Shown piece by piece: positions 2,407 to 22,994 of a stretch of DNA of 64,000 nucleotides. Numbering within the stretch: position 1 is the stretch's first letter; every line of letters begins with the position of its first letter. Made by a program: the position numbers and the translations under genes. The stretch is from an uncultured Alphaproteobacteria bacterium (GTDB lineage Bacteria; Pseudomonadota; Alphaproteobacteria; JAJFIK01): NCBI GenBank assembly GCA_964522525.1, contig CAZFWG010000003.1, positions 22,067 to 86,066 on the forward strand. The letters run 5' to 3'. The notes under the pieces were generated by a model. That model was not told the DNA's origin. It saw only the letters and a list, made by a program, of their open reading frames with translations, and did not search any database.

Positions 2407-3753
2407 CTAAGTCTTCCCACCGGAAAGCCGGGCACGGGCCCGCTCCGGACCGATCAGACACAAGAGCTTCGCCATTTCCGGTCCCCGGGCCTGGCCGGTC
2501 AAGGCAAGACGCAAGGGCATGAAAAGCGCCTTGCCCTTGGCACCGGTGGCCTCGCGCACCTGGCCTGTCCATTGGGACCAGGTATCATCATCATAGGGAC
2601 CCTCCGGCAGCAGACCAACGGCGGCCTCGACGAGTTTCACATCGTCAGCACCTTCCACGGCCGAGGTGATCGGCCCCTCCACAATGCGCCACCAGTCCGC
2701 CGCCTCGTCGAGCCGATGAAGATTGGGGCGAATCGCGGTCCAGAAGGTCTCGCCGCCGGTCACGCCCAGGCCGTTCAACCTGTCGGCGACGGCCTCGAAG
2801 GGCGTTTCGTGGAGCAGCTTGGCATTGAGGCCGCGCAATTCCTCGATATCGAAGCGGGCGGGCGCCCGACCCAGCTTGTCCATGCCGAACTCGTCCGCAA
2901 GCGTCATGAGATCATGGCGCGGCTCCACGGGATCGGACGTCCCCAGCTTGGCCAAAAGGGAGACCACGGCCAGGGGCTCAAGGCCCTCCTCCCGGAGGCT
3001 CTCGATCGTCAGGGACCCAAGCCGTTTGGACAACGCCTCCCCTTGCGCGCCGACGAGAAGGGACGTGTGACCGAAAACCGGCGCCGATCCGCCCACGGCC
3101 TCAAAGACCTGGATCTGGGCGCCGCTATTGGTGACGTGATCCTCGCCCCGAATGATATGGGTGATGCCCTCATCGATGTCATCGACCACGCTCGGCAGGG
3201 TGTAGAGATAGCTGCCGTCCTCGCGCACCAGAATGGGATCGGAAATGCTGGCAGTGTCAATTTCCGTCTTGCCCCGGACCATATCCTCCCAGGCGACACG
3301 CCGCCCGTCGAGCTTGAAGCGCCAGTGGGGTTTGCGCCCTTGGGCCTCAAGCTCGGCCCGCTCCGCCTCGCTCAGGGAAAGCGCAGCCCGGTCATAAACC
3401 GGCGGTTGTCCCCGCGCGCGCTGGAGCTTGCGCTTGCGGTCCAACTCCTCCGGCGTTTCATAGCAGGGATAAAGCAGGCCCTTCGCTTTCAGGTCTTCCA
3501 CGACCTTGGCGTAACGGTCGAACCGGTCCGACTGCCGAAAGGTGCGGTCATGGGCCAGGCCAAGCCAGGCCAGATCCTCGACAATGCCGTCGGCAAAAGC
3601 CTGGGTGGAGCGCTCCACGTCCGTATCATCAAGACGCAGAATGAAATCCCCGCCCTGGCCCTTCGCGAACAGATAGTTGAAGAGCGCAGTACGCACATTG
3701 CCCACATGGAGACGGCCCGTGGGACTGGGGGCAAAACGAACGGTCACGGTCAT
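2407..3753 (-). CDS. gltX: Glutamate--tRNA ligase (second, short alphaproteobacterial paralog type)
   Basis: [34 protein letters not shown] and [11 protein letters not shown] motifs. Confidence 0.95.
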
Positions 3754-3850
3754 GGTGCACTACTCAAAAAGATCAATATAAAGATGAAAAGAACCGGTCA
3801 GCGCAACATTGTCCTGCGCCGGCCGGTCCTGCCTTTCTCACTCAGGCGGT

Positions 3851-4255
3851 TCAGGTGTCCGACTTGTCGCGCCCGCGCAAGGCCACGGCGATGCCATAGC
3901 CCAGGGCGATGAGCAGCAGGGCCGGGATCAAAAGGACAAAAGCCGTGAGCGCCAACGCAATGATGCTCACGGCAATGCCGATGGCCGAGCCGACAATGCC
4001 CATGATGACGCCGAAAAGGGCGCCGAACAGACCCAGGATCAAGGGGCCCAGGAAAACACCGATCATGAGAGCCAGGAGCAGGGCCACCCAGAGCCAGGCG
4101 GAGCCCCGGGGCAGCCGGCGCTCGGGCTGCGGACCATCGGAGGATCCGCCCGCGCCTCGATCGGTCTGGCTCTGCCCATGGGATGAGCCGGTATCGCTGT
4201 TCTCGGCCGTCAGTTCAGGAACGATCGGAAGGTCGTTGTCATCAGGCTGTGGCAT
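3851..4255 (-). CDS. Hypothetical membrane protein with Gly-patterned TM helices
   Basis: Low-complexity N-terminus followed by about 70 continuous hydrophobic residues. Start trimmed to 4255 (MPQPDD), which overlaps the nadE stop by 14 bp. Confidence 0.7.
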   Translation of the reverse strand: MPQPDDNDLPIVPELTAENSDTGSSHGQSQTDRGAGGSSDGPQPERRLPRGSAWLWVALLLALMIGVFLGPLILGLFGALFGVIMGIVGSAIGIAVSIIALALTAFVLLIPALLLIALGYGIAVALRGRDKSDT

Positions 4256-5906
4256 CGCGAAACCTGTTTGTAATCGGATATCGGCGGTCGCGGCCGAAAT
4301 TCCGAGGACTGATCTTGACGCCGGGCGCGGCCTGCCGGCGCTTGTACTCGGCGAGATAGACAAGATGCTCGATCCGTTTCACCGTGGCCGGCTGATGACC
4401 GCGCGCCACGATGTCTTCAAACGCCATGTCCCCCTCGATGAGACATTCAAGAATGTCGTCAAGCTCCGCATAAGGCGGGAGTGAATCCTCGTCCCGCTGA
4501 TCGGCCCGCAGCTCCGCCGTCGGCGGTTTGCTGATGATCCGCTCCGGGATCACGACCCCTGTGGGCCCCTTGCCTTCCCGTGGCACCTGGCTGTTGCGCC
4601 ACCGGGCAAGCGCAAACACCTGCGTCTTATAAAGGTCCTTGAGGGCATTATAGCCGCCGCACATGTCGCCATAAAGGGTGGCGTAACCCACGGAAACTTC
4701 GGACTTATTGCCCGTGGTCAGCAGCATGGGCCCGAATTTGTTGGAAAGCGCCATGAGCATCACGCCCCGGATCCGGGATTGCATGTTCTCTTCCGTGGTG
4801 TCCGGCGCCCGATTGCCGAACAGGGGCCCCAGGGTCTCCGTGAAGGCGGCGACGGCGGCCTCGATCTCCAGCAGATCGTAACGGGTGCCGAGTGCGGTGG
4901 CGCAGGCCTTGGCGTCCTCGAGACTGTCGGCACTGGTGTAGCGGGAGGGCAGCATCAGGCACCACACCCGCTCCGGACCCAGAGCATCGACGGCCAGGGC
5001 CGCCGACAGGGCACTGTCGATGCCGCCGGACAGGCCCAAGACGACACCGGGAAAATGGTTCTTCTCGACATAATCGCGCAGGCCCACCATGGCCGCGAGA
5101 TACTGGCTTTCCGCCTCCTCGACCAGGGACACGCGCGGCCCCGTCTCGCAGGTCCAACGGTCGCCCACGCGAGACCAGGTGGTGGGCACCACGGCTTCGC
5201 GCCATTCGGAGGCCTGAACCACGATCGAGCCATCGGCGTTCATGACAAAACTGCCGCCGTCAAAGGCGAGTTCATCCTGTCCGCCGACCTGATTGACATA
5301 GGCCAAGGGCAGCCGGCTCTCGCCGACCCGCCGGCGCACATGGGTCAGGCGCATGTCATATTTGCGCGCCTGGAAGGGCGAGCAATTCGGGGCCAGGCAG
5401 AAAGCGGCGCCCGCCCGTTTCAGACCGTCCATGGGCTCGGGCACCCAGATGTCTTCACAGATGGGCAACCCGATGGGCACACCCCGGATCGTGACGGGAT
5501 GGGGCATCGGCCCGGCCTGGAACACGCGCTTTTCGTCGAAGACGCCATAGTTGGGCAGCTCGTTCTTGAAGCGCAGCGCCTGGAGCGCGCCGTCATCGAG
5601 TACGGCCACCGCGTTGTAGAGCTGGCCATCCGCCAGCCACGGGGCGCCGAGCACAATGGCGGGGCCGCCATCCGCCGTTTCCTGGGCCAGGGCATGGACC
5701 ATGGCCATGGCCTCTTCCTGAAAGGCCGGTTTGAGCACGAGGTCCTCAGGCGGATAGCCAATCAGAAAAAGCTCGGGAAAAACGATGATATCGGAGCCGT
5801 CTCCCGCCGCCTGGGCGCGCGCCGCGCGCACAAGAGCGGCATTGCCGGTGATGTCACCGACGACGGGATTGAGCTGGGCCAAGTGGATGGTAAGGCGATC
5901 GGTCAT
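4242..5906 (-). CDS. nadE: NAD+ synthase (glutamine-dependent, nitrilase + synthase domains)
   Basis: Nitrilase triad FPEL / KNELPNYGVFDEKR / ICEDIW, plus LGLSGGIDSA, TTGNKSE and AELRADQRDEDSLP. Start trimmed to MTDRLT. Confidence 0.96.
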   Translation of the reverse strand: MTDRLTIHLAQLNPVVGDITGNAALVRAARAQAAGDGSDIIVFPELFLIGYPPEDLVLKPAFQEEAMAMVHALAQETADGGPAIVLGAPWLADGQLYNAVAVLDDGALQALRFKNELPNYGVFDEKRVFQAGPMPHPVTIRGVPIGLPICEDIWVPEPMDGLKRAGAAFCLAPNCSPFQARKYDMRLTHVRRRVGESRLPLAYVNQVGGQDELAFDGGSFVMNADGSIVVQASEWREAVVPTTWSRVGDRWTCETGPRVSLVEEAESQYLAAMVGLRDYVEKNHFPGVVLGLSGGIDSALSAALAVDALGPERVWCLMLPSRYTSADSLEDAKACATALGTRYDLLEIEAAVAAFTETLGPLFGNRAPDTTEENMQSRIRGVMLMALSNKFGPMLLTTGNKSEVSVGYATLYGDMCGGYNALKDLYKTQVFALARWRNSQVPREGKGPTGVVIPERIISKPPTAELRADQRDEDSLPPYAELDDILECLIEGDMAFEDIVARGHQPATVKRIEHLVYLAEYKRRQAAPGVKISPRNFGRDRRYPITNRFRDATA

Positions 5907-19762: not shown

Positions 19763-19837
19763 GGGCACGTAGCTCAGTGGGAGAGCACTGTCTTCACACG
19801 GCAGGGGTCGCTGGTTCAATCCCAGCCGTGCCCACCA
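19763..19837 (+). tRNA. tRNA-Val (anticodon CAC)
   Basis: Acceptor stem GGGCACG/CGTGCCC, D-arm TAGCTCAGTGGGAGAGC, anticodon loop TTCACAC, T-loop GTTCAATC and encoded 3' CCA. Confidence 0.97.
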
Positions 19838-20004
19838 TCCTTTCACCTACCCACAATTCGCGTTGGGGCATGATCCGCCCACCCCAGGATCGCTCCCTTT
19901 TTCATCGCAACTTGCGGATCGAGTTGCGCGGACGGACGATCGGGATCCGCCGTTCTCCATGCCAGCCCTGTCAGCTCTGATCCTCGCGGACCATGGCCGC
20001 CGCG

Positions 20005-20721
20005 TCATTTGACGGGCGCTGGGTCTGACGGGCGCTGGGTCAGCCACAGAAACGCGGCAACGCTGAAGCCCGTGGCCTCCAGGATCACCGCCATGATGAC
20101 GAGCTGATACCGCACCGCGATCAGGGGATCGACACCGGCGATGATCTGGCCCGTCATCATGCCCGGCAGGGCGACGAGCCCGACGGCCAGAAGCGCGTTC
20201 ACTTGGGGGATCATGGCGGCGATCCAAGCCTCGCGCCGGGCATCGACCCGACTTGCGCCCGTCTCTTCCTCCCGCGCCAGCCTCTCAGCAGCAATTGTGA
20301 TCCCCGTCATCGCATTGGAGAAGACCATGCCGGCAATGGGCACGGTCAGGCGCAGATCCGAGAAGGGTTGGGTCAGCCCGAGCACGACAATCAAGACGAA
20401 CACCAAGGTGCCGCCGCCGCCCAGCAGGAGCGCCAGCAGAGCATGGGGCAGCGCCCGGCTCCAGCGGTCCTTTTCGACAAGCCGCGTGGCGATCACGGCG
20501 GAGACCGTGACCATGACCGCGACCACCAGAATGCCGAGCCAGACGGCTTCTCCCGTGAACAGGACCTTGAGCACGAAGCCAATGGCGACGAGCTGCACGG
20601 ACATGCGAATGGCGGCATAGACAATCTCGCCGCCCCGTCCCGCCCAGCGCCAAGCGATAAGAACAATGCCGAGCACCGGCACAAGGCTCAGGAATAGGGC
20701 TGATACCGTGATTTCGGGCAT
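20005..20721 (-). CDS. ABC transporter permease, FetB/YbbM (UPF0014) family
   Basis: RMSVQLVAIGFVL, PIAGMVFSNAM, GLVALPGMMTGQIIAG and AVRYQLVIM. Start trimmed to MPEITV. Confidence 0.9.
   Translation of the reverse strand: MPEITVSALFLSLVPVLGIVLIAWRWAGRGGEIVYAAIRMSVQLVAIGFVLKVLFTGEAVWLGILVVAVMVTVSAVIATRLVEKDRWSRALPHALLALLLGGGGTLVFVLIVVLGLTQPFSDLRLTVPIAGMVFSNAMTGITIAAERLAREEETGASRVDARREAWIAAMIPQVNALLAVGLVALPGMMTGQIIAGVDPLIAVRYQLVIMAVILEATGFSVAAFLWLTQRPSDPAPVK
20010..20041. repeat. Perfect 16-bp tandem duplication
   Basis: TGACGGGCGCTGGGTC at 20010-20025 and again at 20026-20041. Confidence 0.9.
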
Positions 20722-20853
20722 GTCCCCTCCTCTTTCCCCGCCCGCCGTCGCGCATTCGCGGACAGGTGCGGATGGGAGGGGGATCCTATCAGCGCGGGCG
20801 GCAAAGATCTGCGCGGCCCGCCGCAGCACCGGTTCGGCGCGCGGAAGAATGGA

Positions 20854-21282
20854 TCAGAAACGGGGATCCCGGAGGGACATGCGGGTCGTCGCGCCGTCCC
20901 CATCGGTGATGGTCATCTCGATCTCCTCACCAATCGTCTCGAAGCCTATCAGCATGTCATCGACCCTGAAACTGCCGTGGCCCGCCTCGTCATCACCGAG
21001 AAAGGCTTCGGTGATGTCGCGGGACAGATCCGTGAGAAGACGTCTTTGGAGGGCTCGTGAAAAGCCATCTTCAGCCCCAGGAACGGCCTTTGCCTCTTCA
21101 TTTGCAGACGGAACCGAGGCCTCGCGCGGCGGCGCCGGAGGGTCGGCGGGAAACGCGCGGCCATCGGATGGGGGCGCCAACGATCCCAAAACGAATTCCT
21201 CCGCATGGGCCTTGAAGAATGACAAAGAAAGAACGAGCCCGAACCCGAAGGCAAGGGTCCCAACGATCATCTGCTGGCGCAT
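20854..21282 (-). CDS. Divergent CsgF-like (curli secretion accessory) exported protein
   Basis: Signal peptide (AHA/EE). The C-terminal half F.R.LQRRLL..LS..I.EA.LG.....GSF.......FE.....I.MTITD..G.TT follows the alphaproteobacterial CsgF pattern. Confidence 0.65.
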   Translation of the reverse strand: MRQQMIVGTLAFGFGLVLSLSFFKAHAEEFVLGSLAPPSDGRAFPADPPAPPREASVPSANEEAKAVPGAEDGFSRALQRRLLTDLSRDITEAFLGDDEAGHGSFRVDDMLIGFETIGEEIEMTITDGDGATTRMSLRDPRF

Positions 21283-21310
21283 TCAGGTCTCCCGTGAGGC
21301 GGCGCGGCCT

Positions 21311-21658
21311 TCAGAGGTCTGTTTCGGATGAGAGCACCGGAGCGGAACCGGCATTTTCATGGCGGGAGCAGGTAAACATGCGGCCCCAGGAATCACTCAC
21401 GGTGAGGCGCGCATGAACGGCGAGATCAAGGGACTTGCCGACGCCGATGGTGGCCAGTGTCATGTTTCCATCGGCACCAATCACGACCTCCCCGCTTTGC
21501 CTGCTTTGGACTGTGCCTAATACGGATGATTTACGGATGACAAACTCATAGCTCAAGGGCAGCGCATGGGCGGTTTTCTCAATGGCGCCCCTGGCGATGA
21601 AATTCAGGCATTCACCGCTGTCTTTGACATCAATTCGGCATGCGAAGGGTTTATCCAT
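21311..21658 (-). CDS. CsgH-like protein, no signal peptide in frame (possibly a 5'-eroded gene)
   Basis: About 100-aa beta-rich domain bracketed by two Cys (FAC...FTC) with Y.FVIRKS..G...S.QSG.V...A.LTV, the CsgH pattern. In-frame TAA at 21689-21691. Confidence 0.55.
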   Translation of the reverse strand: MDKPFACRIDVKDSGECLNFIARGAIEKTAHALPLSYEFVIRKSSVLGTVQSRQSGEVVIGADGNMTLATIGVGKSLDLAVHARLTVSDSWGRMFTCSRHENAGSAPVLSSETDL

Positions 21659-22013
21659 AACGGCTCTGGGCGTTTGTTGGATTTGAGCTTATTCAGGAGC
21701 GGCAAGGCAATCGCGCGAACAACGGAAATAACCGGAGGAGCCGCTATCGGAACCGGCCACTATGGTTGGCCAGAACCTTTCCATGTCCGACCATAAGCTT
21801 CTTTGCATACGGAGCGAAGCGCAATTTCCATGCTTATGCGATCGTTTTTCCGGTGTGTTGCCAGCCCGCCACAGAAATGTGGATCTAGACCGTCAATGGA
21901 CGGAGGACCGGCGACGACGAATCGGCCCCCTTATCCCCAGCCTGTGCAAAAGACAAAAGCCTTCCCTCGGGAATCACCGGAGCATTTTCACGTCAACAAC
22001 CAAAAAGAAAGCA

Positions 22014-22994
22014 TCAGGAGATTTCATCCGGTTTGAGCGCAAAAAAGCGATAGACCTGGAGCTGCCCGTTTTTGAGGGCGTTGAGCCGCTCCGACCACAT
22101 CTCGGCCTGCTGGGCGAGTGCCGCCAGAAAGGTCTGACGATCAGTAACTTGTTCGTCGTCGTCTTCAATGAGCTTCATCAGCGCTCCCCATCCATGGGAC
22201 GATGCGCTGATCAGATCCACATAGTTCTGGCTAATATCCTTCCGCACACGAACATCAAAACCGACACTGGTCAACAGGTTTACATGTTCGTCGGCCGCCC
22301 GCAATTGCGGCTTGCCCCAGAAGTCGGAAAAAGCCTGATCGGCGAGCATATCCGGATCACCGGTGTCGGAGACCACATAGTCGGTGAGCAAAATGCTCCC
22401 GCCCGGACGCAAGGATTCGTACACCTGTGCGATGACGCGCTCCTTGTGCTCCATATGGTGGAGTTCATCGCGCACAATGATGATGTGGAACTTGCGCGGC
22501 GGCAGGGCCGTCTCGACCGGATCAAAATGTTGCACATTGATCTTACGGGCGAGACCCGCCATCAGGCACTGTTCGCTCGCCGGTTCAATAAGATCCGCCC
22601 GCGTCTCAAATCCCGAGATCCAGATGCCGCTCTCCCGGCAGATCTCCCGGGCGGGACCGCCAAGGCCAAGACCGACAAAGGCGAGGCTCTTGTCGCGGGA
22701 AATACCGAATTGGCTGACAAGGTCCAGAATGAAGGCGGCATCGCCGGGACCCAGATACCCCTCCCCCCAGAGAGCCTGGGCGATGGTCAGATGGGCGGCG
22801 AGTTGGGGCACCTTTGGTGAATATTGAATGACCGAGGGCGTTTCCGACTGTTCTGTCTGCGGAGCCATGGACGGCGCGGCAAGGTCATCGGGTTCGAGGT
22901 CGGCGAGGTCAACACCTTCCCACCACGCCAGGAACCGTCGCCGCATATGCGTGACATCCACTTTCAGAATTGGAATCGCATTTTTGTTCCGCAT
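22014..22994 (-). CDS. Class I SAM-dependent methyltransferase-domain protein
   Basis: LWGEGYLGPG, GLGLGGPAR and LRPGGSILLTDY motifs, with an N-terminal AWWEG motif. Confidence 0.8.
   Translation of the reverse strand: MRNKNAIPILKVDVTHMRRRFLAWWEGVDLADLEPDDLAAPSMAPQTEQSETPSVIQYSPKVPQLAAHLTIAQALWGEGYLGPGDAAFILDLVSQFGISRDKSLAFVGLGLGGPAREICRESGIWISGFETRADLIEPASEQCLMAGLARKINVQHFDPVETALPPRKFHIIIVRDELHHMEHKERVIAQVYESLRPGGSILLTDYVVSDTGDPDMLADQAFSDFWGKPQLRAADEHVNLLTSVGFDVRVRKDISQNYVDLISASSHGWGALMKLIEDDDEQVTDRQTFLAALAQQAEMWSERLNALKNGQLQVYRFFALKPDEIS

Follow-up and report, generated by a model that had tools for sequence, protein, structure and literature searches.

Can CsgF's C-terminal domain act away from the CsgG pore? 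Published work treats CsgF as one unit, with an N-terminal peptide as the plug of CsgG and the C-terminal domain (C-domain) as the anchor that keeps the nucleator at the mouth of the pore, and a CsgF that has kept the second part while losing the first is a natural experiment on this question. Such a gene lies at 20854-21282, on the minus strand, of a 64,000-nucleotide (nt) stretch of DNA, hereafter the window (positions 22,067 to 86,066 of contig CAZFWG010000003.1, assembly GCA_964522525.1), from an uncultured alphaproteobacterium represented by a metagenome-assembled genome (MAG; 4.38 Mb, 159 contigs, 62% GC) out of stromatolite metagenomes. The window copies of curli genes are here called csgF' and csgH', and the CsgF encoded on contig C136 of the same genome is called CsgF1. 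There is firm support for CsgF' being a paralogue of the organism's own CsgF, carried in a partial copy of the curli operon that consists of two genes, and equally firm support for the release of its pore-docking half from selection and for the loss of the export signal of its csgH partner. What has become of the pair as a whole is a more delicate matter: the somewhat favoured answer is that csgH'-csgF' is a redundant curli duplicate in stepwise decay, which no longer takes part in curli secretion.

csgF' is an intact open reading frame (ORF) of 142 codons, closed by a TGA stop at 20854-20856. As the initial annotation of the window had proposed, its product joins a signal peptide to the C-terminal half of CsgF, and the profile search suggested at that time recovers the family above cut-off for this half only: the Pfam CsgF model PF10614 scores 36.6 bits (gathering cut-off 25.8, E = 5.8e-9), with the match limited to profile positions 63-127 of 132, that is, to residues 70-133. 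A search of NCBIfam models with CsgF' gave no match. Codons 1-27 (21202-21282, minus strand; MRQQMIVGTLAFGFGLVLSLSFFKAHA) read as a Sec signal peptide of n-h-c layout, made up of MRQQ, a 19-residue hydrophobic core and K-A-H-A with its putative A-H-A cleavage motif. Codons 28-72 (21067-21201, minus strand) form an eroded mature N-half, covering the former CsgG-docking peptide, neck helix and linker, and are Pro/Ala-rich (nine Pro and nine Ala in 45 residues); codons 73-142 (20857-21066, minus strand) encode the CsgF C-domain. A Shine-Dalgarno-like GGGAGA (21288-21293, minus strand), read from the sequence, stands 5 nt before the ATG, and GAGGAG occupies the matching position ahead of csgF on C136. 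No promoter was found at the locus in a scan for the sigma-70 consensus, and its terminator-like sites are no more than chance would give.

In E. coli, 27 N-terminal residues of mature CsgF bind the CsgG lumen, surface export of CsgF requires CsgG, and the free C-domain recruits CsgB (PMC7304575). The initial annotation held that the corresponding N-terminus is eroded in CsgF', and an alignment with 19 homologues bears this out residue by residue. Within the docking segment, EEFVLGSLAPPSDGRAF as read from the sequence, the P-x-F-G-G motif has become P-P-S-D-G (L-A-P-P-S-D-G-R with its surroundings): P37 and G41 are retained, and the F and the first G are replaced by S39 and D40 in CsgF' only, at columns where the F is conserved in 18 and the first G in all 19 of the other sequences. 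CsgF1 keeps the motif intact (L-S-P-S-F-G-G-N). The survey of homologues without the motif that the annotation had suggested yielded no companions for CsgF', as all 17 homologues fetched, together with CsgF1 and the relatives' CsgFs, have either P-x-F-G-G or a form that departs from it by one conservative change. Over the whole protein CsgF' violates eight of 21 family-conserved columns (F39S, G40D, A53R, Q56S, S84T, I94F, I135M and P138R), against zero to five in each of the 19 other sequences. Two of these, A53R and Q56S, fall in the neck region, which reads F-P-A-D-P-P-A-P-P-R-E-A-S against a family consensus of ..HLL..A.AQ. A compensated frameshift as the origin of this N-half was considered and rejected: scored locally against canonical residues 28-75, the other two frames of csgF' reach 21 and 18, compared with 33 in frame.

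A profile alignment places E. coli F31, G32 and N34 (precursor numbering) opposite S39, D40 and R42 of CsgF', and the position equivalent to F24 is taken by Leu (L32), elsewhere by Tyr or Phe. In E. coli, F31S alone leaves CsgF unable to complement a csgF mutant, binding to CsgG is reportedly disrupted by single F-to-S substitutions at 24, 26 and 31, and removal of the N-terminus abolishes function and secretion to the surface (Swasthi et al., 2023, PMC10133297). CsgF' resembles these laboratory alleles, F31S, F-to-S and CsgF-deltaN, in having Ser at the F31 position and no recognisable N-terminal region; it differs from them in that its changes are natural and sit in a duplicate alongside an intact CsgF1, and their effect on CsgG is one that we infer. 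Because a natural equivalent of F31S is combined with equivalents of G32D and N34R, with loss of the aromatic residue at the F24 position and with prolines in the neck helix, CsgF' would be unable to dock in CsgG; and since display of E. coli CsgF needs both the N-terminus and CsgG, it should miss the surface and should not act as a pore cap or nucleator anchor. That the positions of E. coli F31, G32 and N34 are among those changed is an independent evolutionary confirmation of the residues that docking needs.

The predicted structure divides at the same place. In an AlphaFold2 model built with a 20-sequence alignment, a signal-peptide helix at residues 4-23 is followed by a disordered stretch at 24-69 (predicted local distance difference test, pLDDT, 50-57) that has no secondary structure and no neck helix, and then by a C-domain made up of one helix (70-95) and four strands (102-138), with pLDDT 77-94. 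The modelling proposed in the initial annotation, carried out on CsgF' alone, delivered a confident C-domain and a disordered N-half. CsgF' shares with E. coli CsgF (CsgG:CsgF complexes 6L7A, 6LQH and 6SI7; nuclear magnetic resonance structure 5M1U) a Sec signal peptide and probably, going by the model, a helix-plus-four-strand C-domain, and differs from it in having no CsgG-binding N-terminus, in the proline-rich stretch that replaces the neck helix, and in a gene that stands beside neither csgG nor a curlin gene. A Foldseek search of the PDB with the model retrieved nothing at E <= 0.001, 5M1U included, and phmmer with CsgF' alone found nothing relevant there, while a profile of the CsgF family alignment matches the E. 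coli CsgF chains of 6L7A, 6LQH, 5M1U and 6SI7. The family assignment of CsgF' is accordingly one of sequence. CsgF' is homologous to CsgF and departs from it in three functionally defining features, namely docking peptide, neck helix and a place beside csgG, so that it is best classed as a variant of the family and not as a working member.

The partner that CsgF' lacks is found elsewhere in the genome. The window holds no match to csgG or a curlin gene, as the initial annotation had stated, and the interval 19838-22013 around csgF' holds no remnants of them. A search of the whole genome, which the annotation had advised, uncovered a complete csgH-curlin-csgF-csgG operon on C136, a contig of 5184 bp: csgH with a signal peptide (42-557), a curlin gene (663-1238), csgF (1260-1688; 142 residues, 116 bits to PF10614 over profile positions 6-132) and csgG (1784-2773; 178.6 bits). 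In the terms of that annotation, a complete operon with an intact csgF of its own would make the window gene a degenerate paralogue, and this is the arrangement found. The same gene order recurs in a same-genus genome (G002), and both operons conform to the alphaproteobacterial type, which is devoid of csgC, csgD and csgE and in which csgH always lies beside csgA/B (Dueholm et al., 2012, PMC3521004). In the window pair, too, csgH' comes before csgF', as in these operons; unlike them, and unlike the periplasmic CsgH chaperone (Taylor et al., 2016, PMC4838910), csgH' has neither a curlin gene beside it nor a signal peptide.

CsgF' and CsgF1 are 47% identical without a gap over 142 residues (E = 2e-43), and both begin with MRQQ. 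A maximum-likelihood tree of 27 CsgFs pairs them as sisters (support 100/98) within their genus and family clade, on terminal branches of 1.09 substitutions per site for CsgF' and 0.027 for CsgF1, roughly a 40-fold difference. Relative-rate counts with G002 as the outgroup assign 40 unique changes to CsgF' and seven to CsgF1 over the whole protein (p = 1e-6), 19 and one in residues 28-72 (p = 4e-5), and 19 and four in the C-domain (p = 0.0026). From these counts and branch lengths it follows that the ancestor of CsgF' was almost identical to CsgF1 and that nearly all change has occurred in CsgF'. CsgF' arose after the lineage had split from its sampled same-genus relatives.

The change is unevenly spread along the protein. 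Identity to CsgF1 is 15/27 in the signal peptide (codon positions 1/2/3: 0.70/0.85/0.59), 6/18 in the docking segment (28-45), 4/27 in the linker (46-72) and 42/70 (60%) in the C-domain, where the third codon position has diverged most (0.79/0.83/0.40); across residues 28-72 as a whole (10/45) divergence is about equal at the three codon positions (0.42/0.51/0.42). Nonsynonymous (dN) and synonymous (dS) divergence estimated by NG86 is 0.92 and 1.23 for residues 28-72, and 0.25 and 1.85 for the C-domain, a ratio of 0.14; with dS saturated these ratios are rough, and the contrast between the halves does not depend on dS. The codon pattern indicates that the N-half evolved near-neutrally, with the signal peptide and C-domain under relaxed purifying selection. 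The N-half of csgF' is also GC-richer (63-68% vs 49-54%), and a Pro/Ala-rich, GC-rich segment is what drift under the GC pressure of this genome would give. At the other end of the protein, three arginines have been gained in the C-terminal tail, a region implicated in CsgB contact in E. coli.

The description of csgF' as an orphan does not hold. csgH', a 115-residue ORF at 21311-21658 on the minus strand, lies 28 nt upstream of csgF' on the same strand, and its product carries a complete CsgH-like domain (NF041112, 44.9 bits, cut-off 35; PF21112, 16.8 bits, under its cut-off) that is 56% identical to residues 57-162 of the CsgH from C136. It has no signal peptide, which CsgH needs as a periplasmic protein. 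The reason can be read in the 173 nt ahead of the ORF (21659-21831, minus strand), a dead leader that corresponds to the 168-nt signal-peptide-coding leader of C136 csgH (z = 8.1; the score was reached by none of 500 shuffles). This homology was assessed by a score-based shuffle test in place of identity in a gapped global alignment, which was discarded as a measure when shuffled sequences proved equally identical. Three-frame translation places the ancestral ATG at 21829-21831, in a frame other than that of the domain ORF, where it encodes MEIALRSVCKEAY..., compared with MDSILRSMCKAAY... in the canonical csgH gene. An in-frame TAG follows at 21760-21762, indels of net +5 nt put the leader out of frame with the domain, and in the frame of the csgH' ORF itself a stop stands 10 codons upstream of the ATG. 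The leader sequence is identical in four independent sample assemblies, so the break is not an assembly error.

Upstream of the two csgH copies, a further correspondence was noted. A palindrome, TGTGGC-N6-GCCACA, lies about 20 nt ahead of the C136 csgH start (C136 1-20), and a degenerate palindrome, TGTGGCGGGCTGGCAACACA (21854-21873, minus strand), is present at the equivalent position upstream of the dead start of csgH'. The upstream regions are weakly similar (z = 2.3), and C136 starts exactly at the palindrome, its upstream context being unseen; from the sequence, the palindrome may be a shared candidate operator for a curli regulator, Alphaproteobacteria being without CsgD. One sample's contig runs 1656 nt past the C136 start.

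CsgF' is an isolated case from one MAG, and a complete canonical system stands alongside it. A HMMER search of 1.84 billion representatives of some 15 billion proteins returned 21 hits, the best other than itself at 40-46% identity and in the C-terminal half only, and a word-index search with CsgF' retrieved CsgF' itself only. Forty related genomes contain canonical CsgFs only and no orthologue of CsgF'. At 80% likeness, the contigs of the four samples contain the csgF' locus and, besides it, a 47-nt cross-match to the C136 csgF. Among 401 genomes of the class, CsgF occurs in nine, in two copies only here, and the window copy is the only one that does not match in its N-half. The same-genus genomes conserve the ACAD-DUF-UDG-hydrolase-methyltransferase string next to which the locus lies and do not have csgH'-csgF'-fetB, which is thus a lineage-specific patch between the methyltransferase gene and tRNA-Val (19763-19837); no homology was found downstream of csgF'.

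In the strain variants of the four samples csgF' is still an open frame. Four synonymous variants were seen, three of them in the C-domain core, and four non-synonymous ones, A55V, D72G, G73D and S75A, all of them within the linker or where it meets the C-domain. In one sample (X4) codons 72-75 (21060-21068) read G-D-F-A, where the window has D-G-F-S and CsgF1 has D-D-F-A; the X4 variant is nearer to the canonical form, and the window allele is therefore the more derived at this boundary.

How these observations are to be put together depends on what the conserved half of CsgF' means. Under the favoured explanation, csgH'-csgF' is a partial second copy of the csgH-curlin-csgF-csgG operon that is intact on C136. 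The curlin gene and csgG would have been lost, or never copied; the docking half of CsgF' would then have been freed from selection; and, more recently, a nonsense codon and a frameshift would have broken the csgH' leader. CsgF' would still be exported by Sec to the periplasm, unable to dock in CsgG, and the conservation of its C-domain would reflect a past, weakening constraint in place of a new function. Decay is preferred because CsgF' is a singleton, because its C-domain is accelerated and breaks near-invariant positions, P138R among them, because of the three tail arginines, and because csgH' is broken. Several observations weigh against it. The csgF' ORF is intact, of exactly the ancestral length and free of indels despite saturated synonymous sites (dS > 1.2); the signal peptide, Shine-Dalgarno-like site and C-domain are conserved; the pairwise dN/dS of the C-domain means that selection kept CsgF' long after the docking half had been freed; and the variants of the C-domain core, a very small sample, are three synonymous to none non-synonymous. 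CsgH' shows no acceleration (eight unique changes against 14 in the CsgH of C136, dN/dS 0.24), so that it may have been inactivated recently, or may have a start that has gone unrecognised. The docking defect is carried over from E. coli mutants, the genome is a MAG in which C136 is 5.2 kb long with 54% GC against 62% overall, and none of the RNA runs searched contains the csgF' locus.

The main rival would make CsgF' a working, CsgG-independent derivative: a soluble periplasmic C-domain on a disordered Pro/Ala-rich tail, still maintained by selection, that would bind curlin or nucleator, perhaps to hold or titrate subunits before export or to tune the main system. The signal peptide and C-domain stayed under purifying selection while the N-half drifted near saturation (dN 0.25 vs 0.92), the C-domain is predicted to fold confidently, the ORF with its ribosome-binding sequence is present and undisrupted across the strain variants of all four samples, and the two csgH copies may share an operator. 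The selection signal is a pairwise average, however, taken with dS saturated, and it does not show constraint at the present day; the C-domain evolves at about five times the rate of CsgF1's and has changed at the near-invariant S84, I94, I135 and P138 (to T, F, M and R); the tail, linked to CsgB contact in E. coli, has gained its arginines; csgH' has no intact leader; no RNA run among those searched carries the locus; and no orthologue has turned up in the same-genus genomes, in the community at 80% likeness or above, or among the roughly 15 billion proteins. On this balance a selected derivative is rather unlikely, and the stricter proposal, that CsgF' is a natural separation-of-function CsgF whose C-domain was kept with its export signal for a periplasmic job of its own, is doubtful. 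Both halves of the alternative posed in the initial annotation stand in part. Decay has gained the broken csgH' leader, but not as the last remnant of the organism's curli system, given the intact operon on C136; repurposing keeps the constraint on signal peptide and C-domain, set against the missing orthologues, the accelerated C-domain and the broken csgH'.

The paralogue reading presupposes that C136 belongs to this organism. Each of the four stromatolite samples contains at least three species of the genus, which differ in abundance profile, and short contigs in any of these same-genus bins should be treated with care. Were C136 mis-binned from one of those species, csgH'-csgF' would be the only curli locus here, decayed in place and orthologous to a sibling species' intact operon; the small size of C136 and its GC content, about four standard deviations below the contig mean, would suit this, as would the absence of any CsgF from the bins of two of the species, G001 and G003. 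Word depth was compared in the four samples (X1 to X4). The window locus has depths of 10.7, 10.5, about 6 and about 6, and C136 has 8.95, 8.82, about 4.2 and about 4.9, or about 0.8 times the window in every sample and nearly equal in X1 and X2; G001 has 13, about 5.4, about 4.4 and 6.3, and G003 about 7.5, about 4, about 2.8 and about 7.2, with X1:X2 ratios of about 2.4 and about 1.9. C136 follows the window and not its siblings, which is moderate evidence from four samples, and an origin in G001 or G003 was rejected on these profiles. The csg genes of the window are low in GC as well (csgH' 55.5%, the spacer upstream 53.5%). The sister pairing in the tree, where the CsgF1 branch is close to zero, is as compatible with a duplicate inside one genome as with an orthologue. 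Mis-binning is improbable, and it would turn the paralogue into a decayed orthologue while leaving CsgF' accelerated and, by the E. coli precedent, docking-dead either way. A spurious resemblance, in which the ORF would encode an unrelated small secreted protein, is effectively refuted: PF10614 does match over half its length only, NCBIfam is silent, and neither sequence nor fold searches of the PDB with CsgF' alone find CsgF, but an unrelated protein would not be expected to align without gaps to the CsgF of the same genome, to pair with it at 100/98, or to have a CsgH-like gene adjacent to it, as in the canonical operon.

If the separation-of-function proposal were true, the C-domain of CsgF would have a pore-independent activity of its own; if decay is all there is, the locus offers a clean, datable case of a redundant curli accessory module dismantled piecewise. 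Decay would also be a warning for annotation pipelines, since a Pfam hit to CsgF, or an above-cut-off hit to CsgH, would not by itself make a working curli component.

The next gene downstream of csgF' (20005-20721, minus strand) encodes a UPF0014/FetB-like permease (PF03649, 165.7 bits), in agreement with the FetB permease named in the initial annotation, although its score against TIGR00245, 93 bits, is far below the model cut-off of 410. No ABC ATPase gene adjoins it, and seven related genomes, among them all four of the same genus, lack fetB. Its strain variants, 15 synonymous and one non-synonymous, show strong purifying selection on fetB within the population.

C136 is one of four short contigs (3.8-7.5 kb; the others are C125, C142 and C128) with 53-54% GC against the genome mean of 62%, which may derive from a single low-GC island or mobile element, or reflect noise in the binning. 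Directly downstream of its csgG lie two genes, at 2779-3501 and 3626-4594. One encodes a secreted protein of 240 residues with no NCBIfam match, the other a secreted protein of the formylglycine-generating-enzyme/PvdO type (best model NF051459, PvdO, 231 bits, below cut-off); both may be accessory genes of curli not described so far, or mere neighbours.

Matches to PF03783 and PF07012 in the whole genome are confined to C136 and contig C16. The CsgG-family gene on C16 was considered as an alternative pore partner and set aside, being HfaB (NF037935, 356 bits, cut-off 300) with HfaA adjoining (NF037934, 58.9 bits, cut-off 50). These genes form a holdfast-anchor locus (contig C16, L002 1264-2798, minus strand), near which a divergently oriented gene encodes a repeat protein, possibly HfaD-like; the organism probably makes a Caulobacter-type holdfast in addition to curli.

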